This document shows positions 33,748 to 49,508 of a stretch of DNA of 64,000 nt, piece by piece (within the stretch, counting starts at the first letter, position 1; each line of letters opens with the position of its first letter). Position numbers and translations under genes: made by a program. The DNA is from Candidatus Gastranaerophilales bacterium. GTDB lineage: Bacteria; Cyanobacteriota; Vampirovibrionia; Gastranaerophilales; Gastranaerophilaceae. The stretch is from contig JAQUVW010000003.1 of NCBI GenBank assembly GCA_028693235.1, positions 182,069-246,068 of the forward strand, given 5' to 3'. The notes under the pieces are model-generated. The model worked only from the letters and a program-made list of their open reading frames with translations. It was not told where the DNA came from and ran no database searches.

Positions 33748-33762
33748 AGATACATAAGCCAT

Positions 33763-33835: not shown

Positions 33836-33846
33836 AATTTAAAAAA

Positions 33847-33871
33847 GACTTTCGATTGAAAGCCTTTTTTT
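33847..33871 (+). terminator. Short hairpin plus T-run after tRNA-Gln
   Basis: ctttc-gatt-gaaag then 7 T. Confidence 0.5.
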
Positions 33872-33954
33872 GTATATATAACCTTTCTAGGACATTTTGA
33901 TGAGAATTTGAGAGGCAAGAGTGCCACGTTTAGGCTAATTGAGCCTAGTTTTTA

Positions 33955-33987
33955 GTGTTGAGATTTAGCGTCAAAAAATGTCCGAAA
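33955..33987 (+). repeat. Left-end repeat copy 1 (gtgttgagatttagcgtcaaaaaatgtccgaaa)
   Basis: Shares GTGTTGAGAT..GTCAAAA with 34185-34209 and ~26/30 nt with 49284-49310, all in the same orientation. Confidence 0.7.
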
Positions 33988-34003
33988 CTTCCGTTTTCTT
34001 GCA

Positions 34004-34173
34004 CAGAATTGCACTAGAAATTTAAGATTTGTGATAATTCTTGGTTGCTCGCGTTAAACGTGTCTGCACGGCAAGGCTCAACGCCTTGACCGTTCCGCAC
34101 TCTGCTCGCAATCCGCTCCCCCACCCCGAGCGAGTCGTTTCTTGGACGAAATCATGTAAATAGTGCAATTCTG
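34004..34173. repeat. 13-bp perfect inverted repeat (cagaattgcacta 34004-34016 / tagtgcaattctg 34161-34173) enclosing GC-rich module A
   Basis: Arms read directly and are exact reverse complements; they bracket ~144 nt. Confidence 0.8.
34044..34146. repeat. GC-rich module A (non-coding, left end of island)
   Basis: Conspicuously G+C-rich block in AT-rich DNA; reverse strand contains GAGCGGATTGCGAGCAGAGTGCGGAACGG, related to modules B and C; internal hairpin caaggc-tcaac-gccttg. Confidence 0.6.
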
Positions 34174-34184
34174 CACTATCACTT

Positions 34185-34209
34185 GTGTTGAGATGTGTCA
34201 AAATATCTG
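34185..34209 (+). repeat. Left-end repeat copy 2 (gtgttgagatgtgtcaaaatatctg), followed by a third partial copy tgtgagatttgg
   Basis: Direct repeat of 33955-33987 on the other side of the IR-enclosed GC-rich module. Confidence 0.65.
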
Positions 34210-34286
34210 TGAGATTTGGATGAAAGACTTGATGTTTCTGCGAAACAGAGCAATTAATGTGTATGTAACCGAAAGGAGAAACACAC

Positions 34287-34484
34287 ATGGATATTGCTTA
34301 TGGAACCAAAATTCAAAACTTAAAAACTAATGAAATTGGTTTATTAATTAAAGTTTGGAAAAATAAATTTGCTGATGGCAAAATTGACTTCGCTACATGC
34401 GTGGATAAAAACGGAAAACGCTACAATATTGAATTAGATTTAATAACTCCAATTAAGGAGGTTGAAGATGATTCTAAAAAATAG
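34287..34484 (+). CDS. Small hypothetical protein (65 aa), first gene of the island
   Basis: ATG preceded by aaaggag RBS; no recognisable motif. Confidence 0.45.
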   Translation: MDIAYGTKIQNLKTNEIGLLIKVWKNKFADGKIDFATCVDKNGKRYNIELDLITPIKEVEDDSKK

Positions 34485-34701
34485 AAGAACCCGAGAAACA
34501 TTAGAAATTGAGTATGCTGAGTTTAGAAAAAAATTTGCTAAAGAGATTCAAATATCTTTTGAGAGCTACAAGCAAACACAGTTAAATAAATCATTTTACT
34601 GTTTCAAAGATGACAATTCAATGGAATTCAACTTTTACTTTCAAGTCCAATACAATTTCAACAGCTTTGGAAATTCAGCTTGGTATATAGAGAGGCTGTA
34701 A
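34468..34701 (+). CDS. Small hypothetical protein (77 aa)
   Basis: ATG 34468 preceded by aaggagg RBS (track start is TTG 34462); ends 1 nt before the transposase ATG. Confidence 0.45.
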   Translation: MILKNRRTRETLEIEYAEFRKKFAKEIQISFESYKQTQLNKSFYCFKDDNSMEFNFYFQVQYNFNSFGNSAWYIERL

Positions 34702-36540
34702 ATGGATATAAATTTTACACCAGAAAAGTCAAAACAAATTGCACTCGCAAGATTAGATTTAATTCACCAATGGCAAGAATTTAGAAGAAAATCTACAAAT
34801 AAATTATCTGCCGACTATGATTTTGTAAAATTACATAATTCTTCAAATTCATATTTATTTGAGATCTTAGGAAAAATATCGAGAGGAAGTTTGCATCGTT
34901 GGAATAATTTGTTAAATGGAAGTGAAGATTATACTTTACTTCTACCTCAGTATAAATATTCTTGTATTGTAGAATATCGAACAGTTTTAACCGACGAAGA
35001 AATCAGAATCTTTATGGGTTTGTTGCTACATCCGAACCGACTTTCAATCGGTAAAGCTACGGCATTGACAAAATACAAACTAAAACAACAAGGTCAAAAT
35101 TTTATCCCAGCCGATATAACATTCAGAAGATATGCAAAGTGGTTCAAAGACAACAATTATGACAAATGGATACTTGCCAGAGATGGTGAAAAAGCTCTGT
35201 CAGATAAAGTTGAACCATATATCAAACGTGATGCGAGTTTGCTTGAAGTCGGAGATATTTTAGTCGCCGACGGTCATAAATTAGCTTTTCAAGTGATAAA
35301 TCCATTCACAGGAAAACCCAAAATGGCGACATTAGTTGGATTTTTGGATTGGAAATCAACAGCTTTGGTTGGCTATGAAATTATGTTAGAGGAAAATACT
35401 CAATGTATAGCTTCCGCTCTCCGTAATTCAATAATAAATTTAGATATGATTCCCAAAGTTGTTTATCAAGATAACGGCAGAGCTTTTAGAGCAAAGTATT
35501 TTACAGACGATAAAGGGTTCTCGGAACTTGGTTTTAACGGATTGTACTCAAAACTCGGAATAGAAACAGTATTTGCAAGACCATATAATGCAAGGGCGAA
35601 AGTTATAGAACGATTTTTTAAAGAATTTCAAGAAGGTTTTGAAAAATTATTACCAAGTTATGTCGGCTCAGCAATTTCTGAAAAACCTGCGTACTTAAAA
35701 AGAAATGAAAGATTTCATGCAAATTTACATTCCGAATATGTACCGACAATTGAAGAAGCGGATTTTGGCAAGTGCGGAGTCGAACGAAGTGAACGAGCAC
35801 GTCCTGCGGCGGTGAACGGTGGAATGAAGCATTTTGCGAAGCAAAACTGCGGAATGAAATCCGAGTTCACCAAGCTGCCAACAATCCAAGACACAATAAA
35901 AATTATTGATATGTGGTTGAGTTTTAAAAATTCTCAACCTTGTCCAAATTCTCCTGACAAAATGATTGCAGAAGTTTTAGAAGATAGAAAGCGTCAAAAT
36001 ATAAACACTGATACATTGGACGATTTGATGTTAGCAACCGAAGTTAAGACAATTCAGAGAAATGGCATAAGATTTTTGAACTACGATTATTTTGATGAAC
36101 GACTTTATGGTTTCAAAAATAAAGTGCGGATAAAATACAACCTTTTTGATTTAACAAGTATCAAAGTTTTTACGATAAAAGGCGAATATCTTTGTAAGGC
36201 AGAGAGAGTAACCGAAACTCATCCGATGGCGAAGATTTTGGGTGACGTAAAAGATTTAGAAGATTACAAACAAAAAATTGAAAAACAACGGAAGTTAAGA
36301 AAGAAAACGATAAATTCAGTCAAGGAATTGTTATCTAATGATGAATGCAAATTTATTGAAACAAAAATTATAAAAAATGAAGAATTTTTAACACCCGTTA
36401 AAACGTCGTTTAAAAGCTCTTTAAATGGCGTTTATAAAAATAATTCTGAAAAATATGAATATCTTGTGAAAAATAATCCTCAAGATAAGTGGATTGAAGA
36501 ATTTAAACAAACAAAGGAGTACAAATTATTGTATGATTAG
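34702..36540 (+). CDS. DDE (rve-type) transposase of the MuA/TnsB/TniA class, carrying an in-frame GC-rich insertion
   Basis: Candidate catalytic D/D/E in VADGHKL, VYQDNGRAFRA, ARPYNARAKVIERFFKEF; Mu-transposase C-terminal barrel pattern GIRFLNYDYFDERLYGFKNKVRIKYNLFDLTSIKVF. Confidence 0.85.
   Translation: MDINFTPEKSKQIALARLDLIHQWQEFRRKSTNKLSADYDFVKLHNSSNSYLFEILGKISRGSLHRWNNLLNGSEDYTLLLPQYKYSCIVEYRTVLTDEEIRIFMGLLLHPNRLSIGKATALTKYKLKQQGQNFIPADITFRRYAKWFKDNNYDKWILARDGEKALSDKVEPYIKRDASLLEVGDILVADGHKLAFQVINPFTGKPKMATLVGFLDWKSTALVGYEIMLEENTQCIASALRNSIINLDMIPKVVYQDNGRAFRAKYFTDDKGFSELGFNGLYSKLGIETVFARPYNARAKVIERFFKEFQEGFEKLLPSYVGSAISEKPAYLKRNERFHANLHSEYVPTIEEADFGKCGVERSERARPAAVNGGMKHFAKQNCGMKSEFTKLPTIQDTIKIIDMWLSFKNSQPCPNSPDKMIAEVLEDRKRQNINTDTLDDLMLATEVKTIQRNGIRFLNYDYFDERLYGFKNKVRIKYNLFDLTSIKVFTIKGEYLCKAERVTETHPMAKILGDVKDLEDYKQKIEKQRKLRKKTINSVKELLSNDECKFIETKIIKNEEFLTPVKTSFKSSLNGVYKNNSEKYEYLVKNNPQDKWIEEFKQTKEYKLLYD
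35757..35880. repeat. GC-rich module B, in frame inside the transposase ORF
   Basis: gcggattttggcaagtgcggagtcgaacgaagtgaacgagc...ctgcggaatgaaatccgagttcacc; terminal inverted cggattt/aaatccg, internal hairpin ttttgc-gaa-gcaaaa; encodes an Ala/Arg/Gly-rich segment unlike the rest of the protein. Confidence 0.65.
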
Positions 36541-37213
36541 AAAATTTGTCAGAACGCAAAATGTTAAAAACTTTATAGGGCTTGTTGAAAATTTAATCAA
36601 TAAACCAAAGAACGTACCAAAAATGGCATTGGTTTATGGCGAACCCGGACTTGGTAAATCTCAAACTGCATTATGGCTAAGTTGCAAATATGATGCTATA
36701 TATTTGAGAGCAACAAATCTTATGACTGGTCGATGGTTACTTTAAGAACTGGTTAAAGAAATTGATGAAATACCGAGATTTTTGACTGCGGACAACTTCA
36801 ATTTACTTTGTAAAAAACTAAAACAGAAGCCAAAGCTGATTATCATTGATGAAATTGATTATTTGATGAATAATTCAAAAACAATAGAAACTTTGCGTGA
36901 TATTCATGATGAAACAGATTGCCCGATAATCTTTGTTGGGATGGGTTTAGCACATAGAAAACTTGAACGATACAAACATTTATATGATAGATTTTTAGAA
37001 ATTCTGCAATTCGAAACTTTTGAAGTAGCGGATTTAAAACAGATTTTTGATGAATTATCAGAAGTTACAGTAACTGCTGATGCAATTGAATATATCTATA
37101 AAAAATATAATCGTTTCAGGCAAATTATTCAGTTGATAAATCAGTTGGAAACTATTGCTAAAGAGAATAATTTTACTGAAATTACCGAAGAAACAGTGAG
37201 GCAGATAATATGA
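36533..37213 (+). pseudogene. TniB/TnsC/MuB-like AAA+ transposition ATPase interrupted by one in-frame TAA (36743-36745)
   Basis: Walker A GEPGLGKS before the stop and Walker B LIIIDEID after it, both in the same frame; the ATG overlaps the transposase stop. Confidence 0.75.
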
Positions 37214-37296
37214 AACGGATTTTCGGTAGGGCACCGTGTGAGCGAGAGCGAACCCAGCCCGTATGATGGAGCGGGACGTTACTCCCGCGACAACTC
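37214..37296. repeat. GC-rich module C (intergenic, after the ATPase)
   Basis: acggattttcggtagggcaccgtgtgagcgagagcgaaccc...ggagcgggacgttactcccgcg; aligns with module B from the CGGATTTT start; hairpin cggga-cgttac-tcccg. Confidence 0.6.
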
Positions 37297-37322
37297 GAAT
37301 AATTCAAGATGGAAAGGAAACT

Positions 37323-37880
37323 ATGGATATACTTAAATTAGCAAAACACCTAAAAGAATTTACGCTTGATGAAATTGAAATGATAGCTGAATGTGATTGT
37401 AAAACCGAACTTGAAAAGTTGTTAAGTGAACATAAAATAGCGTTTAAAAATAAAAAATACGAATACATTGAAAAACAAAATGAGGAATATTCAATATTTA
37501 TAAATAAAAAATCTAAAAATATAAATTATGAATTTACGGACGCCGTACACGATTTTTTAGAAAATTATGCAAAAAAATATTGTAAATCTGGTACTTGTAA
37601 AAACTACAGAACCATTTTTAATTATGGAATTTTACCATTTTTCAAAAATAAACATATTGGGGATATTCAAATTAATGATGTAAAAATTTTTTATAAAAAA
37701 TGTCAGGAATTAAATTTCAAATCAAGACGGATAAAAAACACTTTAGCTCTTTTAAATCAATTATTAAAATATTTTCAGGAGCAAGGATTTATAAAAAGTA
37801 GATGTATTTTTCAAGTAAAACGACTGACAGCCAAAAACGAATTTAATAAAAATAGGTTAATTTTTAAGGAGAATTTATGA
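37323..37880 (+). CDS. Stand-alone tyrosine-recombinase core-binding (phage integrase N-terminal SAM-like) domain protein; no catalytic domain
   Basis: FTDAVHDFLENYAKKYCKSGTCKNYRTIFNYGILPFFKNKHIGDIQINDVKIFYKK...IKNTLALLNQLLKYFQEQGFI fits the four-helix core-binding pattern; the ORF ends ~25 aa later; ATG 37323 with ggaaagga RBS. Confidence 0.55.
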   Translation: MDILKLAKHLKEFTLDEIEMIAECDCKTELEKLLSEHKIAFKNKKYEYIEKQNEEYSIFINKKSKNINYEFTDAVHDFLENYAKKYCKSGTCKNYRTIFNYGILPFFKNKHIGDIQINDVKIFYKKCQELNFKSRRIKNTLALLNQLLKYFQEQGFIKSRCIFQVKRLTAKNEFNKNRLIFKENL

Positions 37881-38296
37881 GTAAAAAACGACATTACAAC
37901 GAAGCAGAACGACTTTTTATATGTGATGGATTGTCAGCAGATGAAATAGCAAGAAAATTTGAGATTTCACGCAGAACAATTTTTTATTGGAAGAAGGAAT
38001 ATAATTGGGATAAGAAGCGAGCGGATTATTTGTTCAACAATACCAGAATGAGCTTTGAAATCAATGATTTTACAAGAAAGTTGATGGATAAAATTATGAC
38101 GGATATTGATAACAATAGACAAGTTAGCCAGTCAGAAATTTATACGGTTTTAAACTTAATAAAACGCATGCTAGAAATCAAAAATTACGAAGACGAAATC
38201 GTCAAAGCTAAAAAAGAAGAAAAACCGAAAGAACTGACGCCTGAATTGATTATGCAAATAAACAAAGATATTCTTGGTTGGGACGGAACTTATTAA
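37877..38296 (+). CDS. HTH DNA-binding protein (small-terminase-like / DUF1804-like N-terminus)
   Basis: AERLFICDGLSADEIARKFEISRRTIFYWKKEYNWDKKR is a helix-turn-helix followed by a W-rich motif; ATGA overlap with the upstream gene. Confidence 0.45.
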   Translation: MSKKRHYNEAERLFICDGLSADEIARKFEISRRTIFYWKKEYNWDKKRADYLFNNTRMSFEINDFTRKLMDKIMTDIDNNRQVSQSEIYTVLNLIKRMLEIKNYEDEIVKAKKEEKPKELTPELIMQINKDILGWDGTY

Positions 38297-38361
38297 TTAT
38301 ATTGAATCTACAAATTCTATTTAATATTTATGCTATTATTGATTATGGAATTAGTGTTCAA

Positions 38362-39354
38362 ATGAGGTTTTTAGTGAATAGTAACGGCCAAAACGAAATC
38401 ATAATTTATCAAGCTAAAAACGGCAAAACTCAAATTGATGTAAAACTTCAAGATGAGACAGTTTGGCTTACGCAAAAACAAATGGCTGAATTGTTTGATA
38501 AAAATGTAAGAACCGTAAACGAACACATTAATAATATTTTTAAAGAAGGTGAATTGAATAAAATTGCAGTTATCCGGAATTTCCGGATAACTGCAATTGA
38601 CGGCAAACAGTACGATACAAACTTCTATAATCTTGATGTGATTATTTCTGTCGGCTATAGAGTAAAGTCTTTGAGAGGTACGCAATTCCGTATTTGGGCG
38701 AACAGTATTTTGAAAGATTATTTAGTTAAAGGCTACGCTGTTAATGAAAAAGTTTTACAAACTCAAAGAGAAAAAATTACGGCTTTGCAAACTTCGATAA
38801 ATTTGCTTTCAAGAAGTTTGACTAATCAAATTGAAACAGTTGATGCGGCTCAACAGGTTGCAATTATTTTGGATAAATTTGCAAAAGGGCTTGATTTGCT
38901 TGATAATTTTGACCACAAAACACTTGATACTAAAGGCGAAACAAAACGTGAAGCAATTAGAATTTCAACAAAAGAATTTTTGTCTGTTGTAAATAAAATG
39001 AAATCAGAATTTGCGTCTGATGTTTTTGCAAACCCTAAAGACGATAGTTTTGATAGTTCTGTTAATCAGATTTACCAAACTTTTGACGGCACAGAACTTT
39101 ATCCGACTTTGGAAGAAAAAGCTTCTATGTTGTTGTATTTGATAACAAAAAATCATTCATTTTCTGACGGCAACAAACGTATCGCTGCAAGTTGTTTCTT
39201 GTATTTTTTGGATAAAAATGACATTCTGTATAAAAATAATTTGCCAACGATTGATAATGCAACCCTATTTGCATTGACGATTTTAATTGCCGAAAGTAAT
39301 CCTACAGAAATGGAAACAATGAAACAAATTGTTGTTAGTGTGTTGAATGGATAA
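38362..39354 (+). CDS. RhuM-family N-terminal domain fused to a Fic/Doc-type domain
   Basis: N-term IIIYQAKNGKTQIDVKLQDETVWLTQKQMAELFDKNVRTVNEHINNIF (RhuM pattern); C-term HSFSDGNKRIAA matches the Doc-type motif HxFx(D/N)(A/G)NKR. Confidence 0.7.
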   Translation: MRFLVNSNGQNEIIIYQAKNGKTQIDVKLQDETVWLTQKQMAELFDKNVRTVNEHINNIFKEGELNKIAVIRNFRITAIDGKQYDTNFYNLDVIISVGYRVKSLRGTQFRIWANSILKDYLVKGYAVNEKVLQTQREKITALQTSINLLSRSLTNQIETVDAAQQVAIILDKFAKGLDLLDNFDHKTLDTKGETKREAIRISTKEFLSVVNKMKSEFASDVFANPKDDSFDSSVNQIYQTFDGTELYPTLEEKASMLLYLITKNHSFSDGNKRIAASCFLYFLDKNDILYKNNLPTIDNATLFALTILIAESNPTEMETMKQIVVSVLNG

Positions 39355-39362
39355 AGATAAAC

Positions 39363-39611
39363 TTATTTATAAGTTTCTAATTTTTTACCTGTTTTTGAAT
39401 ACTTTGTAACAGTTCCATTCGAAGATTTTTTATAGACGAATTCAGTTTGTCCTTTTTTATTGTACTGAACAGTTTTTCCATTTGAATAAGTTTTTGTATA
39501 ACCGGTTGTTTGACCTTTTGAATTCTTGATATATTTTTTTGTTGTCGTACTTGCAAAAGCTGTTGATACAAATATTGTACAAATTAATGTTAATAGCAAA
39601 ATCTTTTTCAT
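39363..39611 (-). CDS. Small secreted Lys/Thr/Gly-repeat protein (82 aa)
   Basis: ATG 39611 with aaagga RBS; signal peptide MKKILLLTLICTIFVSTAFA; repeated K-x-G-x-T units. Confidence 0.45.
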   Translation of the reverse strand: MKKILLLTLICTIFVSTAFASTTTKKYIKNSKGQTTGYTKTYSNGKTVQYNKKGQTEFVYKKSSNGTVTKYSKTGKKLETYK

Positions 39612-39624
39612 AATGTTTATTCCT

Positions 39625-40137
39625 TTATTCAATGCAAATATTTTTTACATAATTATAAAATGTGTCAACAATTTCTTTTAAAATTAGCTCTGAAGATATT
39701 TCTTCGGATAATACAAATTCTTCGTTATAGCCTGATGTATTTAAAAATAATACGGATACCCCCATAGTATCATTCAATGTATTTATAGAATATTGAAATA
39801 AAATTTCATGAATTTCACATTTTTCATCAATATTATTAAGAGTAAGTAAAATTGTAATTGTGTTATTTCCAATATCATTTTCTTGTTGTTCTATGTTTAA
39901 TTTAATATTTTCAGGTAGTTCAATTTCTTCTTTCCATTTTTTCAATTTTAGAAAGGCATTTTTAATTGATGTTTTAAATAATTCAATATTAGTACTCTTT
40001 TTGGATAAGTTTTCAAATTCACTATGAGTCTTTTTATAATTAAAAAATATATCAGAAATTTTATTATGCCCATTTAATGATTTTAAATCTTTAAATGTAT
40101 TAATCATTTTTTCTTTTAGTTCATTCGTTTTTATCAT
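39625..40137 (-). CDS. Hypothetical cytoplasmic protein (170 aa)
   Basis: Clean ORF immediately upstream of the small secreted protein gene; no recognisable motif. Confidence 0.45.
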   Translation of the reverse strand: MIKTNELKEKMINTFKDLKSLNGHNKISDIFFNYKKTHSEFENLSKKSTNIELFKTSIKNAFLKLKKWKEEIELPENIKLNIEQQENDIGNNTITILLTLNNIDEKCEIHEILFQYSINTLNDTMGVSVLFLNTSGYNEEFVLSEEISSELILKEIVDTFYNYVKNICIE

Positions 40138-40213
40138 TTTTATTTTCCTTTTTCTTTTATTTACAAGTAATTATTATATGAAAGATTTTTCTAGTTAGGT
40201 ATTAGATAGGTGG

Positions 40214-40984: not shown

Positions 40985-43418
40985 CCCAGATGGATTGGAT
41001 TTTGGTGTTGATTTTGGCTTGATGAAGTTTGATTAATTTTTTACATTCTTCAACAGCTGTTTCTTCTTCTTCGATTTTGGCTACGATTTCTTGTTGTTCT
41101 TCGAGAGCAATTAACGGAATTTCCAAATCGGAAATATAGCCTTTATTTAAATTTTGCTGTCTTGCCCCAGCTCTATGTAGCATATAATCTTCACGTTTTG
41201 ATGAAAAATAAAGATACAAAAAATACATATTGATTTTCGTATTAGGTTTTACTCCTGAAATTGCCTGATTAAAAGCCCCATCCCTGTCTAATATTGACAT
41301 TTTGAATGCCGCTGTATCATACATTCCAATTAATAAAGAACCTTTAGGGAAAAGCTTTGCATTTGAGTCTTTTAATCCCAAATTAGTTATCTTATCAACA
41401 GAATCCGTAGTGTAAGAATTGTTTAACTCTCCAGATGAATACCAAGGAATACTTCCATTATACCAGTATTCATTATTGCTTCTCGAAGGTGTACCACCTG
41501 ATTGGATATCACATATATCGCCAAGTTTAACTTTTCTCCAATTTGGATTAATTGGAAGAGTTGGTTTCCAATTATCGACTACTTTTTGAGCTCCGTCGAT
41601 TACGGCTTGATATCCGTCCAATTCCTTAACTATTTCTTCTTGAACCTCTAATGGTGGAAGTGGAATTTGAATGAGTGCGACTTCCTTGTTCATTAATTTC
41701 GGATTTCCTAATTTTACAACATAATTTTTTGCAACAACATTTAACACTCTTGCTACATAAGTCATATTTAAATTTTTAGGATTTATCGCTTTTAATGTTC
41801 CACATACATTTGTACAATTGAATTTCCCACTACGACTAAATACAGTTCCTGCATTAGCTCCATCCGTTGTCCATGTCGCATAATCACCTTCAAAATCAAA
41901 AGTGTTAATATATCCGAGCACTCCATTATCTGCTGTTTGAGAGGAATATACAGGATAAGTTCCTTTATTGTTTTCAATATCTTTTTTGCTAATTACTCTT
42001 CCTCTTCCCAATAAGCATATTTTATCTATTCTTACCATATCCCATTTACAATTTGAGTAGTCTTTTGTTTCTTTATAGCGGGAGGCAGTTAGATTATATT
42101 CACCATTTTCTGACAGCTTTGATTTTTCTACGATTGTTGCTAAAGGGTTCTTGTTTATTGATTGGATTGCTTCGCTATCGCTCGCAATGGCACTATTTTG
42201 CCATTGTTGGATTAATTCTGTTGCTTTAGGTAAGTCGTTTTTGTCGATTTCTCTGCGTTGAGCACCTAAATCATATCCGTCATTTTTAATTTCTACAAAT
42301 AAAATTTTATCCGTCTTTTTAGCAAGTTGTCTATCTAGTAGCAAAATTGATGTTTTAACACCTGAATACGGTTGAAAAATACCACTTGGCAAACTTACAA
42401 CGGCATACAAATAATTTTCATCAACAAGTTTTTTTCTTAAATTTTTGTAGGCATTTGCTGATTGAAAAACTATTCCTTCTGGCACAATTATTCCTGCTCG
42501 ACCTGTAGAATTAAGATGTTCCATAATATAATCGACAAACAAAACTTCCGAACGGTTTGCTTTTATTCCAAATTTATTGTGTGGCTTAATCCCTCCTTTT
42601 GGAGTCATAAATGGAGGGTTTGCGAAAATCACATCAAAATAATTATCCCATTTTGTTTGGTTTGTCAAAGTATCGTATTCATAAATTTTAGGTTGTTTGA
42701 ATTTATGCAAATACATATTTACAAGTGCAAGTTTTACCATATCAGGAGAAATATCATAACCTTGAATATTTTCTGTCAAAGTTTTTAGTTCTGTTGGATT
42801 CAAAGGTATATTTGTATTTTCTGAAGTTTTTAAAATATGCTTATACGCTGAAATCAAGAATCCTGATGTACCACAAGCCGGATCTAAAATTGTATCATCT
42901 TTTGTTGGATTAACCACATCTACTATAAAATCAATGATATGTCTTGGAGTTCTAAACTGCCCCGCATCACCTTGAGAGCCCATTATCGAAAGTAAATATT
43001 CAAATCCGTTACCCAAATTTTCGCTATTATTATAATCCAAATCATTGATTTCTTTTAAAAACAAAGTAAGAGTTTGACCGTCACGAAAAGGCAAGTATGC
43101 ACCTTTGAAAATGTTTCTGAAAAGTTCGGGGATTTGTTTTGCAAGTGGCAATTTTTCAAGTGCTTCTGTGTATAAATTCATTCGTGCTTCATTGCCTAGC
43201 TGTTTTGACATAAGTTTTGACCAAGCATATTCATTCAAGTCGTCAGTAAAAAATTCACGTTCGCCACCAAATTCAACCGTTTCTAAGTCCATATCGTCCA
43301 TGAACTTATAAATCATTGCAATCGTAATTTGCTCAATCTGAGCTTGTGGATTAGGGATTTTTCCAACCAAAACATCTCTTGCGTTATCTATCGTTCTTTT
43401 TATATCTTTTGTTAACAT
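40959..43418 (-). CDS. Type I R-M methyltransferase fused to a complete two-TRD specificity subunit (HsdM-HsdS fusion)
   Basis: N-half: DPACGTSGFL (SAM motif I), FANPPF (motif IV); C-half: two target-recognition-like halves, each followed by a conserved helix (LPPLEVQEEIVKELD..., IPLIALEEQQEIVAKIEEEE...) in one uninterrupted 819-aa ORF. Confidence 0.8.
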   Translation of the reverse strand: MLTKDIKRTIDNARDVLVGKIPNPQAQIEQITIAMIYKFMDDMDLETVEFGGEREFFTDDLNEYAWSKLMSKQLGNEARMNLYTEALEKLPLAKQIPELFRNIFKGAYLPFRDGQTLTLFLKEINDLDYNNSENLGNGFEYLLSIMGSQGDAGQFRTPRHIIDFIVDVVNPTKDDTILDPACGTSGFLISAYKHILKTSENTNIPLNPTELKTLTENIQGYDISPDMVKLALVNMYLHKFKQPKIYEYDTLTNQTKWDNYFDVIFANPPFMTPKGGIKPHNKFGIKANRSEVLFVDYIMEHLNSTGRAGIIVPEGIVFQSANAYKNLRKKLVDENYLYAVVSLPSGIFQPYSGVKTSILLLDRQLAKKTDKILFVEIKNDGYDLGAQRREIDKNDLPKATELIQQWQNSAIASDSEAIQSINKNPLATIVEKSKLSENGEYNLTASRYKETKDYSNCKWDMVRIDKICLLGRGRVISKKDIENNKGTYPVYSSQTADNGVLGYINTFDFEGDYATWTTDGANAGTVFSRSGKFNCTNVCGTLKAINPKNLNMTYVARVLNVVAKNYVVKLGNPKLMNKEVALIQIPLPPLEVQEEIVKELDGYQAVIDGAQKVVDNWKPTLPINPNWRKVKLGDICDIQSGGTPSRSNNEYWYNGSIPWYSSGELNNSYTTDSVDKITNLGLKDSNAKLFPKGSLLIGMYDTAAFKMSILDRDGAFNQAISGVKPNTKINMYFLYLYFSSKREDYMLHRAGARQQNLNKGYISDLEIPLIALEEQQEIVAKIEEEETAVEECKKLIKLHQAKINTKIQSIWGDTCENNN

Positions 43419-43451
43419 ATTCAGTTATTCCTTTCGCCTCTAGTGATGAGG

Positions 43452-45932
43452 TTACATATATTTATTTAGAACGATATTATCTTTAATGTATTCAGGCAAA
43501 GTCGCTCTAAAACCGTTCAAATGTTTATAATCTTCCATCGTGAAGCCTGCGTAAAAATTCAACTCTTGAAACTTTTTGCATTCAATAATATTTCTAAATT
43601 GTCCGTCAGTTGCGTACGCTTTTATAAAATTTTTGATATAGGGAACATATTCAGACTCAGGTTTGTAAATAGAAATGTACTTGTCACATTCATCTTCAAG
43701 CAATTCATCTTGGTTCTTAAATTTATTAATAAGTCCAAAAGCACGTTGCAAAACTTCTATCCAAGAAAGTCGTCTGTCAAGATTCTCTGATTTTCTCAAC
43801 TTATCCAAAGTAACAAATAAATTTGGTTTGTTTTCGTATTTTTCTTTTACAATATGTTCTGCTTGTTGCCAATCTTCATTATTTACAGCCGTTTTAATAT
43901 CCTCATCTTGTGTAAATGTTTCTTTTGCTTGTTGGAATAATTCTCTATCAATTTTCATTCCATCAAGTCCGATAGATATTTCCTTTAATTCTTTTAATTT
44001 ATCTGGGTCAAATATTTCAAGAGTTTCTAATGGAGGTTTTCCACCACCTGTTCCACCTTCGCCACTTCTTTCTCTTGGAAGTTTTAATTCTTCATCATAA
44101 TTGAATTCGTGTTCAAAATATTCACAATTTGCGAAGAAATCAAAGAGTTTAAAATATTCTTTTTCTTTGTATTCAGTCGGTTTTGTTGTAGGGTATTTAA
44201 AAGTGTTTTTTCTTGTACCACGACCTTTTATCTGAACAAAATCGGTAGGTGAGAAAATTGGACGCATTAATGCTAAGTTTAAAATATTTTGGCAATCATA
44301 GCCTGTTGTCATCATTCCGACAGTTACACAAATTCTTGTTTTTGAGGATTTATAATCATCTAAAAATCTTGAGTTTCCGTTTAAATTATCATTAGAAAAA
44401 TATGTTGTCATATCTTGAGCTGTAGGCACACAAGATGTAACTTGAACTGCAAAATCAGAGTTATACTTACCTTCCCAGATTTTGTGCGCCATTTGATTTA
44501 ATATTTGTGTAATTTTTGCACAATGGTCTTGGCTTACGCAAAATACAATCGTTTTACCAAATTCACCGGAAATAGGGTCTTTTAATCCATTTTCTAATAA
44601 TGTTTTACAGAATTGAATATTTGTATTTTCTGAGAAAAATTTCTTTTCAAAATCTCTTGCAAATACTTGTTGTTCTTCCTCGTCCCCGTCATCAGTAATC
44701 TGTACAACCGAATAACCTTTTTCTGAAAGAATTTCTGTTGTAATTTCAGTTCTGGCGTCAACAACTTTTGGATTGATTAAAAATTTATCTCTAACACCAT
44801 CAAGCAAGCTATATCTAAAAGTTGGTTCACCACTTTCGCAGCCAAAAGTTTTATATGTATCAAGTAAAATTCTTCTTTCCAACGCCTTAGGGTCTTCAAA
44901 TTTTAGTTTTTTAGTATCAACATTTCTTATATAATCTTTTGGTGTTGCAGTTAATCCTAATTTATAGCCGATGAAATATTCAAATACTGCCCTTGAATTT
45001 CCTCCAATGCAACGATGGCTTTCATCAGAAATTACAAGGTCAAAATCGGTTGGAGAAAATATTCTTTTGTACCTATCATCAACTAAAAGGCTTTGAATAG
45101 TAGTAATTACGACTTCTGCTTTTCGCCAATCGTTTCTGACTTCTTTATAAATTACACAAGTATAATCTTTTAAATAATCATCAAAATTCTTTTTAACCTG
45201 TTTTTCAAGTTCGATTCTATCAACCAAAAATAAGACTCTTTTGGCGTTCCCTGTTTTTAAAAATAATTTAATAATACCTGCAGAAGTTAATGTTTTACCG
45301 GTACCTGTTGCCATTTCAAATAGAAATCTGTTATTATCCTCTTTTGCTGATTGCTGTAATGCTTTTATTGCATTGATTTGGTAATCTCTTAAAAGTCTAT
45401 AACCATTATCAAAACAGAATTTCTTGCGTTTTGATTCATCAATATAATCAGGTTCTTTTAGCAAATTCGGATTTTGCATAAGTGCAACATATTCTTTTGT
45501 AATATTTTCAAAATACAAAGTCTTAGTATTGGGCTTGAAACCTGTTCTTTGCTCTAAGGATTCTTGCGTAGGCATTGATGTTATAATTTCAGGATTACCG
45601 ATTTCGATATCCCAAAGATAATGAATATTTCCGTTTGAAAGAATTACAAACCTAATATTTTGACTCATTGCATAAGCTCGTGCTTGGTCTTTTGCAAAAA
45701 GCGGATTTATATCTTCACGTTTTGCTTCTAAAACACAAAGTGGGAAACCTTTAGAATCAAACAATAAATAATCTAAAAGTCCGGTTTTAAACTTATCATC
45801 TCTTTTTATTTTGGTTGAATATTCTAAATCGACATTAGCTCTGCCTTTTTCATCATCAATCAAACGCCACTCAGCATCTTCAAGTAATTTATTAATTTTT
45901 ATTCTTGCTTTAGCCTCAGATTCTGTTTTCAT
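43452..45932 (-). CDS. hsdR: Type I restriction enzyme R subunit
   Basis: N-terminal PD-(D/E)xK (DYLLFDS...VLEAKRE), helicase motif I MATGTGKT, motif II DESH, EcoEI-R-like C-terminal domain; ATG 45932 with aggtg RBS preferred over the track GTG. Confidence 0.88.
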   Translation of the reverse strand: MKTESEAKARIKINKLLEDAEWRLIDDEKGRANVDLEYSTKIKRDDKFKTGLLDYLLFDSKGFPLCVLEAKREDINPLFAKDQARAYAMSQNIRFVILSNGNIHYLWDIEIGNPEIITSMPTQESLEQRTGFKPNTKTLYFENITKEYVALMQNPNLLKEPDYIDESKRKKFCFDNGYRLLRDYQINAIKALQQSAKEDNNRFLFEMATGTGKTLTSAGIIKLFLKTGNAKRVLFLVDRIELEKQVKKNFDDYLKDYTCVIYKEVRNDWRKAEVVITTIQSLLVDDRYKRIFSPTDFDLVISDESHRCIGGNSRAVFEYFIGYKLGLTATPKDYIRNVDTKKLKFEDPKALERRILLDTYKTFGCESGEPTFRYSLLDGVRDKFLINPKVVDARTEITTEILSEKGYSVVQITDDGDEEEQQVFARDFEKKFFSENTNIQFCKTLLENGLKDPISGEFGKTIVFCVSQDHCAKITQILNQMAHKIWEGKYNSDFAVQVTSCVPTAQDMTTYFSNDNLNGNSRFLDDYKSSKTRICVTVGMMTTGYDCQNILNLALMRPIFSPTDFVQIKGRGTRKNTFKYPTTKPTEYKEKEYFKLFDFFANCEYFEHEFNYDEELKLPRERSGEGGTGGGKPPLETLEIFDPDKLKELKEISIGLDGMKIDRELFQQAKETFTQDEDIKTAVNNEDWQQAEHIVKEKYENKPNLFVTLDKLRKSENLDRRLSWIEVLQRAFGLINKFKNQDELLEDECDKYISIYKPESEYVPYIKNFIKAYATDGQFRNIIECKKFQELNFYAGFTMEDYKHLNGFRATLPEYIKDNIVLNKYM

Positions 45933-46017
45933 AAACACCTATTTAGGATTAAGTATAGTTATATGAATATCACAAAAACTAATATTTTAATACCTAATTT
46001 AAAATATGTAAATATTT

Positions 46018-46054
46018 TTGTTTTCAAATTGTTTCGCAACTAAATTGAAAACAA
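46018..46054. promoter_or_regulatory. Palindromic candidate operator between divergent hsdR and merR-family genes
   Basis: ttgttttcaaatt (46018-46030) and aaattgaaaacaa (46042-46054) are 12/13 complementary, 11-nt spacer. Confidence 0.5.
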
Positions 46055-46091
46055 TTTCTGTAGCAAATAACATGCTAGAAAGTGAGGTGAA

Positions 46092-46451
46092 ATGTTAGAT
46101 TTAAATAAACCAATATTAAAAGTAAGCCAAGTTGCAAAAGAAATAAACCTATCTGCTGATAGATTAAGAACTTATGATGAAGAAAAATTGGTTATTCCAT
46201 ATCGTGAAAATAATAATACACGATTATATAGTTATAATGATGTGTATTGGCTAACAAGTTTGAGAAAATTAATAGGGAAAAATAATCTTTCAATATTAGG
46301 TTTTAAAGAAATTTTACGTCTAACATATTCAATATCCGATTCTGATTTTGAAAAATTTGTAAAAAGACAGAAAAAAGATTCTATTTGGCACATTATTGCC
46401 GACATGCGCCAAAATCCTAATTATTTGAAATTGAAAGAGTTTTATAGTTAA
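46092..46451 (+). CDS. MerR-family transcriptional regulator
   Basis: N-terminal winged HTH VSQVAKEINLSADRLRTYDEEKLVIPYRENNNTRLYSYNDVYWL. Confidence 0.75.
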   Translation: MLDLNKPILKVSQVAKEINLSADRLRTYDEEKLVIPYRENNNTRLYSYNDVYWLTSLRKLIGKNNLSILGFKEILRLTYSISDSDFEKFVKRQKKDSIWHIIADMRQNPNYLKLKEFYS

Positions 46452-46617
46452 ATTTTTACTTAAAAACATTTATGAAGCTAAAATAAAAAAACAGGAAAAT
46501 CAAAGGGGCATTAGGGTTTATAAATTATACGATTTAACCTCTGCTGAAGTCAAAATAATCGACAATAACACTAAAATATTCAAAAAATATTTTAATTATG
46601 AAATAGATGAAAAATAA
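46435..46617 (+). pseudogene. Possible 3' remnant of an R-M/BREX-type methyltransferase or specificity gene
   Basis: Start-less open frame ending ...RGIRVYKLYDLTSAEVKIIDNN...*; the (V)Y.LY.LT..E...I motif is a common C-terminus of type IIG/BREX methyltransferase proteins. Confidence 0.3.
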
Positions 46618-46739
46618 AATGATATTTTTTATTAAGAATAACATTATAATAATATCAATATTATTTCTATTACTATTGTACATTTAAAGAAAAATTATTA
46701 TACTAATAATTTATAAAATATTTGTTGTAGAATTTTACT

Positions 46740-47756
46740 ATGGTTAATGTAAAAAAGACAAAAAAGAAAACAAGAAATGCCTCAGCTTCGATTTTTGGTT
46801 GGGATTTTCAAACAAATGCTGCAATTTTACTAATGCTTGAAAATATAAAACGTGCAGATAGTGTAAAAGTAGAGAGCCAAACTGAAGATATAGAAATAAA
46901 ATTAACAGACGGAAACATTATATATTCCCAAGCAAAATCAATACTAAATGCAGATGATACTGCAAATTTATCAAAAAAGTTAAAAGATGCAATAAAAACT
47001 TTAAATGATGCGAGCAAAAATGATAACGTTGAAAAATTAATATATATAACTAACCATTCTAATCCGTTAAGTGATCAATCTACAGTTGGCTATTTTAGTA
47101 CAACATCCCAAATTCCTTATATAGATTTACCGAAAAAATGCAGAAACAAAATTGATAAAATTATTAAAGATGGTAAATATGATATAGATACAAATAAAAT
47201 ATATATTGCAGTTTTACCTTTTATCGGGAGTGAAGAAAATAATCGGTACAAAGAAATAAAAAGGGCCGTTTTTGAATTTATAGGTCAACTTAATATGATA
47301 ACTAATATAGATAGTAAGAAAATATTAGATACATGGCAAAAAGAATATTTTTTTAATTCTACTGTTCCTGATGACACAATTACAATAACAAAGAAAAAGA
47401 TGATGTGGACATTGATTGTTCAAATGTGCGAAATGGATATAGGGGATGAAATTCTTGAAGATTGCGATTCTGCTCAAATACAAGAAATAAAAAACAATTA
47501 CAATAGCATTATCAACATAATGTCTGATGACTTCTCATTGGTTTCCAAAGTTCTTGGAAAGTATTCTGATTATAAAATTAAAGGAGAAGGGAATTTACAG
47601 TCTTTTATTAGGACAAAATACAAAGATTTTGAAAATGAATTTATAGATAATTATTTATCTACGGAAGATAGAAAATGTTTAATTCAAATCATATTAAAAA
47701 AAATTATTTTAAAAAGATTTCATATAGAAAAAATAAAGGAGGCTGCTAATTTATGA
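46740..47756 (+). CDS. Cap4/DUF4297-like PD-(D/E)xK nuclease (LmuA-like effector)
   Basis: N-terminal FGWDFQTNAAILLMLENIK...VKVESQTEDIEIKLTDGNIIYSQAKS matches the G(F/W)xFQ...E..D(I/V)...Q(A/V)K pattern of DUF4297. Confidence 0.6.
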   Translation: MVNVKKTKKKTRNASASIFGWDFQTNAAILLMLENIKRADSVKVESQTEDIEIKLTDGNIIYSQAKSILNADDTANLSKKLKDAIKTLNDASKNDNVEKLIYITNHSNPLSDQSTVGYFSTTSQIPYIDLPKKCRNKIDKIIKDGKYDIDTNKIYIAVLPFIGSEENNRYKEIKRAVFEFIGQLNMITNIDSKKILDTWQKEYFFNSTVPDDTITITKKKMMWTLIVQMCEMDIGDEILEDCDSAQIQEIKNNYNSIINIMSDDFSLVSKVLGKYSDYKIKGEGNLQSFIRTKYKDFENEFIDNYLSTEDRKCLIQIILKKIILKRFHIEKIKEAANL

Positions 47757-49216
47757 ATATAGAGTCTCTTAAAATCCAAAAAGGATTATTTCATTGGTTT
47801 TTTAATTTTAATTCTATTGTTACACTGATAAATAGTGAAAATAATAGTACGGGCAAAACGACTCTTTTACGGTTTTTACTTTATGCAATGGGTTTTTCTA
47901 TACCGAGTACAAAAGGTTTAAAAATGGAAGAATATACTTGTTATTTGAAGGTAACAAGCGATTCAAATGAGCATTTTGATATTACAAGAACACAAAATTA
48001 TTGTTCTTTAAAAATGATTGATAATAAAATTGAATATTATTCGTTGCCGGCAGATAAAGATATTTTATTATCAAAAATTTTTGGTATAGAAAATTTAAAT
48101 ATAATTAATAATATACTCGGAATAATGTATGTTGACCAAGAAAAAGGTTGGACTTTACTTAATAGGGGCGTTGTTATTGGTAGTAATCATTTTAACATTC
48201 ATAATTTTGTACAAGGTCTTGGTAATATAGATTGCAGTGAACTTTATAATAATTTAAATTATTTAACTTATCAGTTAAATAAATATAAGAGTATGTTTGA
48301 TGTTGCAAATTATCAACTACAAATCCAAGACATAACCCAAAGTAAAAAATACGACTCCTTAGATGATGAAATTAATAAAAAAATCGTAACACTTCAAATA
48401 CAAAAAAAGCCACTCGTTTTGGAATTAGAAGAATTAAAAAAGGTTTTAAACAAAAATAAAAATTTCAAAAATTATATTTCAAAGATGCAATTATCTGTTC
48501 AAAATAAAGATGGTATTAAAATCCCAGTTAATGCTAAAACAATTATTGGTTATACCGACAATAATGAATATATTTCAACAAAAGTTAATATATTAAAAAC
48601 TCAAATCGTAAAAATTGATAATAAAATAAAATTCTTAATTAATGAAAAAAAACAAGTAATGCCGTTAATGTCTGTAAAAACTCTAATCGAGCAATTTGAT
48701 AATGATATTTCAAAAATCAATATAAATTATAATGCTGTAAAAAATATGATAAATAAAATTAATATAGAGAAAAGAAATATAGAAACAGAAATAGACATTA
48801 AAACTAAATCCGAAACTGAAATAGTTAATATGCTAAACAATATTATAAGAAAATATACGGAAGAATTAGGCGTAAACTCTTCATACCTTAGTCCGAGAAA
48901 GGACTATATTTTTACATCTGATTTGAAAAGTTTAAGTGGTGCAGTTTTTCATAAAATAGTGTTTGCTTTTAAATTAGCTTATGTATTTTGCTTAGAACAA
49001 TATGCACATATAAATATTCCTATAATTTTAGATTCTCCTCGAGGAAAAGAAATAGATGATTGCAACATTGAAGAAATGATTAAGATTTTAAAACGTGATT
49101 TTAGCAATCATCAAATTATTATTGCTTCTATTTATAAATACAATTTTAGTAAAATTAATTTTATTAACCTGAATAATGGTTTATTAGAACTAAATAGTCA
49201 ATATTTTATGAAATAG
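47753..49216 (+). CDS. SMC/ABC-type ATPase with central coiled coil (LmuB/DUF3732-like, short)
   Basis: N-terminal Walker A NNSTGKTTLLRFLLYAMGF, long K/N/I-rich coiled-coil middle, C-terminal signature-like SLSGA and Walker B IPIILDSP; ATGA overlap with the nuclease gene. Confidence 0.6.
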   Translation: MNIESLKIQKGLFHWFFNFNSIVTLINSENNSTGKTTLLRFLLYAMGFSIPSTKGLKMEEYTCYLKVTSDSNEHFDITRTQNYCSLKMIDNKIEYYSLPADKDILLSKIFGIENLNIINNILGIMYVDQEKGWTLLNRGVVIGSNHFNIHNFVQGLGNIDCSELYNNLNYLTYQLNKYKSMFDVANYQLQIQDITQSKKYDSLDDEINKKIVTLQIQKKPLVLELEELKKVLNKNKNFKNYISKMQLSVQNKDGIKIPVNAKTIIGYTDNNEYISTKVNILKTQIVKIDNKIKFLINEKKQVMPLMSVKTLIEQFDNDISKININYNAVKNMINKINIEKRNIETEIDIKTKSETEIVNMLNNIIRKYTEELGVNSSYLSPRKDYIFTSDLKSLSGAVFHKIVFAFKLAYVFCLEQYAHINIPIILDSPRGKEIDDCNIEEMIKILKRDFSNHQIIIASIYKYNFSKINFINLNNGLLELNSQYFMK

Positions 49217-49228
49217 AGTTTAAAACAA

Positions 49229-49264
49229 CATATATCTTCATCTCAAAGTTAATTTTATATCAAT
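49229..49264. repeat. Right-end repeat copy R1 (catatatcttcatctcaaagttaattttatatcaat)
   Basis: ~27/35 identical to 49377-49410; its reverse complement contains ACTTTGAGAT, resembling the left-end TTGAGAT motifs. Confidence 0.6.
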
Positions 49265-49283
49265 AAGACTGATTAATTAAATT

Positions 49284-49310
49284 AAGATTTAGCGTCCAAA
49301 AAGTTCCGAA
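49284..49310 (+). repeat. Copy of the left-end repeat at the right side (aagatttagcgtccaaaaagttccgaa), same orientation as 33955-33987
   Basis: Direct comparison: agatttagcgtc(c)aaaaa(a)(t)gt(t)ccgaa. Confidence 0.65.
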
Positions 49311-49376
49311 TATAAAATACCGGCTATCTTACAAATGAAAATTTGAATAATTTACGCCTGTTATTATTTTAAGCTA

Positions 49377-49410
49377 CATATCTCTATCTCAAAGTCAATC
49401 TAATATCATT
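49377..49410. repeat. Right-end repeat copy R2 (catatctctatctcaaagtcaatctaatatcatt)
   Basis: Second copy, ~148 bp after R1; followed by ...tattACA at 49425-49427. Confidence 0.6.
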
Positions 49411-49508
49411 ACAACTTGTTTATTACAGTAGCCAATCTATGTGAACAAATATGGTTGCAGCATTCCAGTTTTTTCATTACACAACTCTTTTATTAATTCT
49501 AAATCTTT

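Follow-up and report, generated by a model that had tools for sequence, protein, structure and literature searches.

In a 64,000-nucleotide stretch of a Candidatus Gastranaerophilales genome (GenBank assembly GCA_028693235.1, contig JAQUVW010000003.1, positions 182,069 to 246,068 of the forward strand; hereafter the window), a 15.5 kb island rich in defence genes begins just downstream of a tRNA-Gln gene. We consider it likely that this island is a defective copy of a widespread Mu-type transposon family, in which a small protein derived from the core-binding (CB) part of a tyrosine integrase selects the T-arms of tRNA genes as targets. At the tRNA-proximal end of the island stands a transposition module which, judged from its domains, comprises a MuA-like DDE transposase, a minimal MuB/TniB-like AAA+ ATPase, the CB-domain protein (CB protein), and a helix-turn-helix (HTH) protein (Table 1). 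These four genes form the conserved core of the family, with two small open reading frames (ORFs) and a second, left-end HTH gene found only in a subset of its members. An island beside tRNA-Gln with these module genes and a defence cargo had been reported in a preliminary description of the locus, and this layout is borne out by domain and PADLOC matches.

Homologues of the transposase are abundant, with at least 5000 in gut metagenomes and identities of 75-83% among the matches listed (119 besides the window's own protein). In a sample of 90 family loci, an upstream tRNA or transfer-messenger RNA (tmRNA) gene was identified in 58, systematically on the same strand as the transposase (58/58) and nearly always within 2.7 kb of the transposase gene start (57/58). 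By a rough estimate, a same-strand tRNA would end within 2.7 kb upstream of a random point with a chance of a few percent. At least 13 kinds of genes are used in this way, namely Leu, Ser, Gly, Ile, Asp, Tyr, Thr, Glu, Lys, Arg, and His tRNAs and tmRNA, as well as Gln in the window. Across the 49 loci in which the left tip could be placed, its distance from the tRNA 3′ end is 25-369 bp (median 61 bp; 39-63 bp in 28 of the 49). The tip is usually found just beyond the tRNA terminator, and the longer distances often hold stubs of other copies or GC-rich inserts. Insertion occurs 25-100 bp, and mostly 39-63 bp, downstream of the tRNA or tmRNA gene, invariably with the left end facing its 3′ end.

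The mobility of the family is seen in a single 12,565-bp element encoding an intact relative of the window transposase (P0026), which was found in three unrelated gene contexts (loci L085, L086, and L087) at 99.6-99.98% identity. Identity among the three copies breaks at the same bases, 5′-TATAAATTAAGTGCAAG on the left and GTTAAATTATA-3′ on the right, and each copy has its own 5-bp duplication (TAAAG, GTAAT, and GTCAT), which is the signature of Mu/Tn7-type DDE transposition. The tRNA gene belongs to the host and not to the element, because it lies outside the identity breakpoints in these three loci and because the corresponding junction of the window is kept in element-free genomes. In L086 and L087 the element follows intact tRNA-Gly genes; in L085 (8520-8600) the same element follows a tRNA 3′ fragment only, with T-arm and acceptor strand intact, beside an integrase-bearing island. 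The 3′ half of a tRNA gene may therefore be a sufficient target. A guide-RNA mechanism is not supported, as the longest exact matches between the last 40 nt of the tRNA and the first 6 kb of the element were no longer than in the control (mean of 7.2 nt vs. 7.1 nt in mismatched partners) and no CRISPR-like array was found in the window. The earlier suggestions of tRNA-proximal homing without CRISPR and of an uncharacterised targeting mode are both strengthened by the family data, with 58 same-strand upstream genes, 5-bp duplications, no guide-like matches, and a covariation that points to the CB protein as the selector.

This covariation links the CB protein to the T-arm of the neighbouring tRNA. 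Relative to the reference element in L085, transposase and ATPase are 77-94% identical across the family, and the CB protein 39-68% identical in most loci. CB-protein clusters group loci by neighbouring T-arm sequence, not by the amino-acid identity of the tRNA. Clusters 1 and 3 are found at GTGGG-TTCRAWT-CCCAC arms (four tRNA-Ser genes that differ in their variable arms, one tRNA-His, and one tmRNA), clusters 6, 7, and 8 at GCGAG-TTCGAGY-CTCG arms (three tRNA-Asp and three tRNA-Gly), cluster 2 at AGGGG...CCCCT arms (one tRNA-Glu and one tmRNA), and clusters 9 and 10 at GGTGG...CCAC arms (five tRNA-Ile, along with two tRNA-Leu with a GGGGG stem). Mantel tests relating protein identity to T-arm Hamming distance across 36 non-redundant loci yielded a clear correlation for the CB protein (r = -0.42, p = 0.0002), including when controlling for the transposase (r = -0.44, p = 0.0002). 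The same tests gave r = -0.03 (p = 0.70) for the transposase, r = -0.06 (p = 0.45) for the ATPase, and r = -0.13 (p = 0.054) for the HTH protein. Individual pairs illustrate this pattern: L096 and L097 have 99% identical transposases, CB proteins only 44% identical, and different T-stems, whereas L096 and L100 share their T-stem with 83% identical transposases and 87% identical CB proteins. By position, the association is strongest in the T-stem, the T-loop, and some further 5′ positions of the gene, and it is gone beyond the tRNA end. Outside the original sample, two CB proteins closest to the GCGAG group (P0184 and P0212) both stand after a tRNA-Gly with a GCGAG T-arm, and the closest homologue of the window CB protein on a long contig (P0125) stands 55 bp past a tRNA-Gln that has exactly the T-arm of the window tRNA-Gln. 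Look-ups of identical selectors mostly returned the same insertion recurring across many samples. From the covariation in these 36 loci, we infer that the CB protein is the target selector and reads the T-arm.

The predicted structure of the CB protein is compatible with such a role. An AlphaFold2 model (mean predicted local distance difference test score of 82.6, based on a 52-sequence alignment) has three parts: a conserved N-terminal winged-helix-like domain (residues 1-48), a disordered and variable linker, and a four-helix bundle (residues 71-153). In Foldseek comparisons, this bundle superposes on the CB domains of the lambda, pi2, and other phage integrases and of the Tn1549 integrase, with target-normalised TM-scores of 0.66-0.80 and a root-mean-square deviation of 1.6-2.2 Å for the closest matches. 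No catalytic domain was detected in the window CB protein, either by Pfam or in the AlphaFold2 model. The T-arm itself is a 5-7-5 palindrome, which is the geometry of an integrase core site, and the general behaviour of tyrosine recombinases makes recognition of a T-arm by a CB dimer plausible.

A profile search across 1.84 billion representative proteins recovered 109 relatives of the CB protein at E ≤ 1e-10, several of which (325-365 amino acids, aa) align over the whole profile and include a Phage_integrase domain in addition. One such protein, P0252, shares 38% identity with the window CB protein over residues 3-171. It occupies the same third gene slot, preceded by a 228-aa ATPase and by a transposase with 53% identity to P0026. 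In the sister lineage to which this type of protein belongs (L201:707-4467; GCA_028694425.1, JAQVKX010000044.1), the third slot holds a full-length recombinase-like protein (357 aa) with SAM_3 and Phage_integrase domains, and AbiEii-type cargo follows the recombinase-like gene; the contig starts too near this element to show the insertion site. In P0252, P0254, and P0318, the first catalytic Arg is replaced by Lys and the LGH motif by LGD, with the Tyr kept. The substituted Arg aligns with R225 of the Tn1549 integrase, and the change is the same as that in an inactive mutant used for crystallography. The full-length recombinase of the sister lineage is thus probably inactivated, and the available sequences suggest a series leading from an active recombinase through an inactivated full-length selector to a CB-only selector.

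We propose that the CB protein would bind the double-stranded T-arm DNA of a tRNA gene and, once bound, would nucleate or cap the AAA+ ATPase on the downstream DNA; the family ATPase is without the N-terminal HTH (DNA-binding) domain of the B protein of phage phiRTG5. The ATPase would then recruit the transposase-end complex, captured at its far side, and the outcome would be an oriented, left-end-proximal insertion at a distance varying by a few helical turns. Strand transfer would probably be Mu-like or replicative, because no TnsA is present. Swapping or divergence of the CB gene would retarget the element to tRNAs with a different T-stem. We see about an even chance that the family is, in full, a compact, Cas-free, TniQ-free, and protein-guided system (transposase of ~585 aa, ATPase of 226 aa, selector of ~184 aa, with or without an HTH protein of ~137 aa) in which the CB selector reads the T-arm palindrome of tRNA and tmRNA genes and is exchanged between backbones to retarget. 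If true, this would represent a new class of target selector, and a large, previously unrecognised family building defence islands at tRNA loci in gut bacteria.

Several observations weigh against this account. The selector assignment draws on covariation in 36 non-redundant loci, and the correspondence between CB protein and T-arm has exceptions. Specificity is loose in places: CB cluster 4 is found at five tRNA kinds with G-N-G-G-G stems, and the L161 and L167 CB proteins are 96% identical with stems that differ by one pair (GGTGG vs. GGGGG). The L191 CB protein, outside cluster 1, is also at a GTGGG T-arm. Around eight loci with enough upstream sequence show no tRNA; among them are one with a 3′ tRNA fragment in which the T-arm is intact and one with the right end of another element. 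Insertion distance is far less precise than for TnsD-type systems (29 ± 1 bp, PMC9881144). Finally, the target duplication of the window copy is not intact, and its right end is ambiguous.

Some of these exceptions lend themselves to a different assignment of the selector, in which targets would be chosen by the HTH protein, the N-terminal domain of the transposase, or host transcription, termination, or processing complexes, and the CB protein would serve in regulation or as an accessory that binds the ends. The HTH protein is variable too and has a borderline association with the T-arm (see above), and insertions usually follow a terminator at a variable distance. Yet the CB protein is the sole component that covaries with the T-arm, and pairs of loci sharing a T-arm and a high CB identity have HTH identities down to 0.34-0.38. 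An end-binding role is further disfavoured by a CB cluster that occurs with several left-end types, and T-stem classes cutting across tRNA identity would not be expected if the choice were purely host-driven. We therefore regard a selector other than the CB protein as unlikely. The HTH protein itself may be a regulator or bind the ends as an accessory.

It is much less likely still that the island is a true Tn7-like element, or a type V-K CRISPR-associated transposon that has lost TniQ, Cas12k, and its array. Such an origin would fit the tRNA-adjacent position with the left end proximal, the defence cargo, which many Tn7-like elements carry (PMC8649781), and the domains of the module. The window transposase has an rve-like core and matches Mu-transpos_C (PF09299, E 2.8e-14), its ATPase matches AAA_22 (1.1e-12) and TniB (2.5e-7), and these profile matches place both proteins inside the MuA/TnsB/TniA and MuB/TniB/TnsC superfamilies, as the preliminary description had expected; the TniQ that was sought along with them was not found. 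Comparisons with solved Tn7-like proteins are weak: a profile match of the transposase to V-K TnsB at E 0.14, and marginal matches of the ATPase to TnsC (E 0.075-0.12). Sequence searches of solved structures with the transposase returned nothing significant, and Tn552-like plasmid genes gave weak tblastn matches (~26% identity). Families from transposable phages match far better, phrog_310 for P0026 (E 2.5e-84) and the MuB-like phrog_296 as the best family for the ATPase (E 2.5e-37). TnsA, TniQ, Cas, resolvase, and virion genes had no match in any window ORF, and the first three were also missing from the Pfam lists of the relatives' called genes; the window likewise held no large Cas-like ORF and no Rfam match. 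The TniQ-less four-gene core is conserved in ~90 loci and is hence not a decay product. Because TnsA and TniQ are absent, the element is, on its gene content, Mu-like and not a member of Tn7, so that of the original label "Tn7-like/Mu-like" the second half stands (phrog_310, phrog_296) and the first does not. TnsA is also absent from V-K CRISPR-associated transposons and Tn5053.

Known systems nonetheless share individual features with this family. tRNA homing has already been described for TnsD-bearing and V-K elements (PMC9881144, PMC10293859), as has a recombinase-derived selector, TnsF (PMC10293859). In the tRNA-homing Tn7-like and CRISPR-associated transposons (TnsD-type selection in I-B2 and I-D, crRNA-guided in V-K; PMC9881144, PMC10293859), a DDE transposase, an AAA+ protein, and a dedicated selector produce oriented insertions downstream of tRNA genes, with a 5-bp duplication and defence-rich cargo, as here. 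These systems, however, rely on TniQ-domain proteins or on Cas12k and a guide, use one tRNA site per lineage, and insert precisely (29 ± 1 bp or 30-33 bp past the tRNA; PMC9881144, PMC10293859), whereas the present family uses many tRNA kinds according to T-stem, at a looser distance of 25-100 bp. TnsF, the selector of Tn6022-like Tn7 transposons (Faure et al. 2023, PMC10293859), resembles the CB protein, as far as a comparison by description allows, in being tyrosine-recombinase-derived, non-catalytic, and encoded beside a TnsB/TnsC-type module, and the likeness extends to the sister lineage, which keeps a full-length, probably inactivated recombinase in the selector slot. It differs in having N-terminal zinc fingers, in keeping the catalytic-domain fold, in acting with TniQ and TnsA, and in targeting comM, whereas the CB protein consists of a winged helix and CB domain only (~184 aa), would work without TniQ or TnsA, and stands at tRNA and tmRNA genes. 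Tn5053/Tn402 (TniABQR) and Tn552 also pair a Mu-transpos_C transposase with a TniB-like ATPase and lack TnsA, but they depend on TniQ, on a serine resolvase and its res site, or on both, and their targets are res or plasmid sites.

An origin as the remnant of a Mu-like transposable prophage, or of a phage satellite, that lost its structural genes appears equally improbable. Among annotated proteins, those most closely related to the A-like and B-like proteins do come from transposable phages, BalMu-1 and phiRTG5 (26-28% identity, including for the A-like proteins), and Mu-like phages share with the family the A-then-B order near the left end, the 5-bp duplication, the lack of TnsA, and the best sequence matches. 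The HTH proteins also resemble DUF1804 and small-terminase-like DNA-binding proteins. However, Mu has virion genes, near-random target choice, and TG...CA tips, unlike the TATA.../...TTA(C/T)A tips of the family, and its style of replicative spread is incompatible with site-specific insertion. No capsid, tail, portal, or lysis gene was found in the window or among the Pfam-listed genes of ~25 relative loci, while ~90 related loci share the compact four-gene core, and 2.9 million viral contigs (IMG/VR) contain one close match only. Accordingly, the initial statement that the island lacks both CRISPR-Cas and phage genes holds, with no array, cas, or virion match in the window. phiRTG5 also encodes a protein with a SAM-like domain near its A gene, which could be taken to favour a phage origin, but this protein is not detectably homologous to the CB protein. 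In this Fusobacterium phage (OR492272.1; L172:3221-4000), the 259-aa protein is encoded ~600 bp upstream of the A and B genes, and has a SAM-like integrase N-terminal domain and a sub-threshold catalytic-domain match. A small integrase-like protein beside a Mu-type module may nonetheless be a recurrent arrangement.

A classical tyrosine-integrase genomic island at tRNA-Gln, which the tRNA adjacency and the integrase-like SAM/CB protein might suggest, is extremely unlikely: the CB protein has no catalytic domain, the element starts 40 bp past an intact tRNA, the island is not flanked by a direct repeat of the tRNA 3′ end, and the family's 5-bp duplications are typical of DDE transposition. Tyrosine integrases that target tRNAs do use a CB fold to read core-type attB sites, and full-length integrase-like homologues of the CB protein exist, but their recombination takes place within the tRNA gene, whose 3′ end is thereby restored, whereas here a DDE insertion occurs outside the gene.

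Table 1 Features of the island and its flanks in the window (positions are those of the 64,000-nucleotide stretch).
Feature	Position	Strand	Remarks
Host tRNA-Gln(ttg), presumed target	33762-33836	+	T-arm GGAGG-TTCGAAT-CCTTC
Intrinsic-terminator-like hairpin and T-run of the tRNA-Gln gene	33841-33871	+	Read from the sequence
Flank GTATA, expected left copy of the target duplication	33872-33876	.	
Left end, tip TATAACCTTTCTAGGACA	33877-34030	+	Homology with L091
GC-rich insert, ~110-140 bp	34030-34174		Up to 66% GC; flanked by a 13-16 bp inverted repeat
Small ORF, 65 aa	34287-34484	+	Conserved in a subset of relatives
Small ORF, 77 aa	34468-34701	+	phrog_34337 match; conserved in a subset of relatives
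MuA-like DDE transposase, 612 aa	34702-36540	+	Mu-transpos_C and rve-like core
Minimal MuB/TniB-like AAA+ ATPase, 226 codons, pseudogene	36533-37213	+	AAA_22 and TniB
GC-rich spacer between ATPase and selector genes	37214-37322	.	61% GC; the two genes abut in most relatives
Candidate target selector (CB protein), 185 aa	37323-37880	+	Phage_int_SAM_3
HTH protein, 139 aa	37877-38296	+	DUF1804/Terminase_5-like, phrog_756; fourth conserved core gene
RhuM-Fic/Doc protein	38278-39354	+	PADLOC PDC-S23, E 3.9e-126
Two ORFs, 170 and 256 aa (39625-40137, 40214-40984)	39625-40984	-	No significant family match
Type I restriction-modification system	40959-45938	-	PADLOC MTase_I, Specificity_I, REase_I
Fused HsdM-HsdS, 819 aa	40959-43418	-	N6_Mtase domain and two target-recognition domains
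HsdR	43452-45938	-	Separate gene beside fused HsdM-HsdS
MerR-family regulator	46092-46451	+	
PDC-M46 two-gene candidate defence system	46740-49216	+	PADLOC
PDC-M46A	46740-47756	+	E 1.9e-104; without Pfam match
PDC-M46B, LmuB/SMC-like ATPase	47753-49216	+	E 1.3e-164
Right-end copy 1, CATCTCAAAGTTAAT and 28 nt	49239-49281	+	Tip ATTAAA vs. consensus ATTA(C/T)A
Fragment 86% identical to the left-end site 33958-33986	49282-49310	+	Same orientation as that site
Right-end copy 2, outermost, ends ...TTATTACA	49385-49427	+	Same motif and 28-nt spacing; tip ATTACA
GT8 gene	49731-50516		Right-flank backbone
tRNA-Pro(tgg)	50837-50913	-	

The window copy is defective and very probably immobile by itself, because its ATPase gene has a nonsense codon, its transposase an insertion of 45 aa, and its right tip is degenerate. 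The nonsense codon is an in-frame TAA (36743-36745) between Walker A and Walker B, at a position where relatives have Glu (GAG/GAA). The transposase insertion (35758-35892) is in frame, GC-rich, and unique to the window, being missing from five relatives, and the first of the two right-end copies has lost its terminal CA. Of these three defects, only the nonsense codon could stem from an assembly error.

On the left, the element starts at 33877, 40 bp past tRNA-Gln, where homology to the closest relative (L091, transposase 83% identical, inserted after a tmRNA gene) begins exactly. The preliminary description had rightly placed this boundary just past the tRNA and its terminator, although its start at 33871 is moved to 33877 by the L091 homology. 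The tip at 33877 fits the left-tip consensus TATA(A/G)...GGACA seen in >40 relatives, and the left end contains putative transposase-binding sites around 33889-33908 and 33958-33986, in opposite orientations. The order of tRNA, terminator, and left end also recurs in relatives. On the right, the repeats at 49229-49427 that had been noted before were confirmed, and the family right-end motif, CATCTCA(A/T)AGT(T/C)AAT followed by 28 nt ending in ...ATTA(C/T)A, occurs there twice. As had also been noted, no intact 5-bp duplication flanks the window copy: the left flank is GTATA and the right flank TTAAG or GTAGC, the latter, after right-end copy 2, matching GTATA at only 3 of 5 positions. The right end could not be found as an inverted repeat of the left tip, the two ends sharing only short motifs, and a search for "TA + duplication" succeeded only for the element in L085, L086, and L087. 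A short-word BLAST of the window right boundary against the family gave nothing useful.

These features suggest that the window probably contains one element (33877-49281) and a 146-bp remnant of an older one, the fragment at 49282-49310 being readable as a stub of this older, displaced copy. Comparable junctions are found elsewhere in the family: a right end abuts a 5′-truncated left end in L110 (3891-3960) and L126 (9632-9700), in L112 (9556-9655) a gap of 55 bp separates a right end from the left end that follows it, and left-end stubs precede a full left end in L107 (2471-2600) and L146 (9610-9660). Our reading of these stub junctions is that insertion was repeated at the same tRNA, with a newcomer landing between the tRNA and the resident copy, and such displacement points to the lack of a strong target immunity.

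The window copy also appears to host insertions of its own. Three GC-rich patches (34030-34174, 35739-35892, and 37194-37317; 57-66% GC, ~110-140 bp) stand out from a window of low GC content (~33%), which is similarly GC-rich only at the two tRNAs and in one stretch of a gene at 61707. All three fall within the transposition module, one of them in frame in the transposase, and the first stands where other family members have the left-end HTH gene. This first insert was considered as a structured or guide RNA and rejected, with no Rfam match and no complementarity to the tRNA; it folds better than shuffled sequences on both strands, largely owing to its flanking inverted repeat. Upstream of the transposase in L173 (4530-4610) is a GC-rich copy with the same termini, GCGGATTTTGGCAAG...AATCCAAGAC, for which a clean target duplication was not recovered. 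GC-rich inserts also occur between tRNA and left end in L121, L144, L146, L149, and L156. These inserts look like a parasite of the transposon family akin to miniature inverted-repeat transposable elements, and are reminiscent of in-frame palindromic elements.

The cargo of the window copy includes three systems (PDC-S23, type I restriction-modification, and PDC-M46) whose system hidden Markov models were matched and whose component genes are adjacent. The initial labels of RhuM-Fic/Doc, type I restriction-modification, MerR, and SMC-like ATPase were recovered by PADLOC and Pfam. Those of "HEPN-like" and "Cap4-like nuclease" were not, the ORFs at 39625-40137 and 40214-40984 having no significant match and PDC-M46A no Pfam match. 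Cargo is wholly different among family members (L082:13436-20188, L085:13411-20958, L173:7984-10945, L191:6957-12564, and L197:7233-12555) and often consists of anti-phage systems, which makes the family a carrier of defence and accessory genes in general. In these relatives, cargo includes a cluster of MarR, ACP-synthase III, ATP-grasp, and epimerase genes, a DpnII restriction-modification system accompanied by Nmad3, DUF6994, and DUF4917, a pair of SMC_N and AAA_21 proteins, a PLD-SNF2 protein alongside an MmeI-like methylase, and TIR proteins.

The backbone preceding the island consists of the housekeeping genes FtsY and NusB, then tRNA-Gln(ttg) and its terminator-like hairpin, in the genome of a non-photosynthetic relative of cyanobacteria. 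We compared the NusB loci of 80 related Gastranaerophilales genomes, whose NusB proteins are 58-73% identical to that of the window. Island genes were found in none of the 80 within the flank covered at each locus, up to 10 kb from NusB on the tRNA-Gln side, and the NusB-tRNA-Gln junction was kept in 13 of the 14 related loci scanned for tRNAs. The island is thus an accessory mobile element, and a conserved core block, which the preliminary description had named as the outcome that would speak against it, was not seen. Right-flank genes (GT8 and the genes at 51062-53534) had no syntenic counterpart near NusB in the 80 genomes, so that the right boundary cannot be fixed by synteny. An exact match to the window NusB protein, sought for an empty site in the same species, was found on one 1.9 kb contig only. 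The window NusB itself (32971-33630, minus strand; 219 aa) has its NusB domain confined to residues 104-212, and its N-terminal extension of ~100 aa is kept across the 80 relatives, with matches spanning residues 1-213/219.

tRNA genes are classic hot spots for genomic islands, a preference commonly attributed to tyrosine integrases. The present family suggests that a DDE transposon took over no more than the DNA-reading half of such an integrase, which would steer a Mu-type machine to the same sites and leave the tRNA untouched. The family is very common in gut bacteria and apparently undescribed; no published description was found in the searchable literature, the coverage of which is incomplete, and a prior description is possible. 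Interest is tempered by a selector role inferred from covariation only and by the window copy being a fossil. For genome annotation, an "integrase SAM-like domain" beside a "Mu transposase C-terminal domain" marks a transposon, and not a prophage or an integrase island, and a small, guide-RNA-free system could be of interest as a tool for site-specific insertion. If confirmed, the CB protein would join TnsF as a second and independent example of a recombinase-derived target selector, and would show selector swapping as a means of retargeting among tRNAs sharing a T-stem. It would also account for a class of defence-carrying islands that is very abundant in gut metagenomes, in line with the thousands of transposase homologues detected there.

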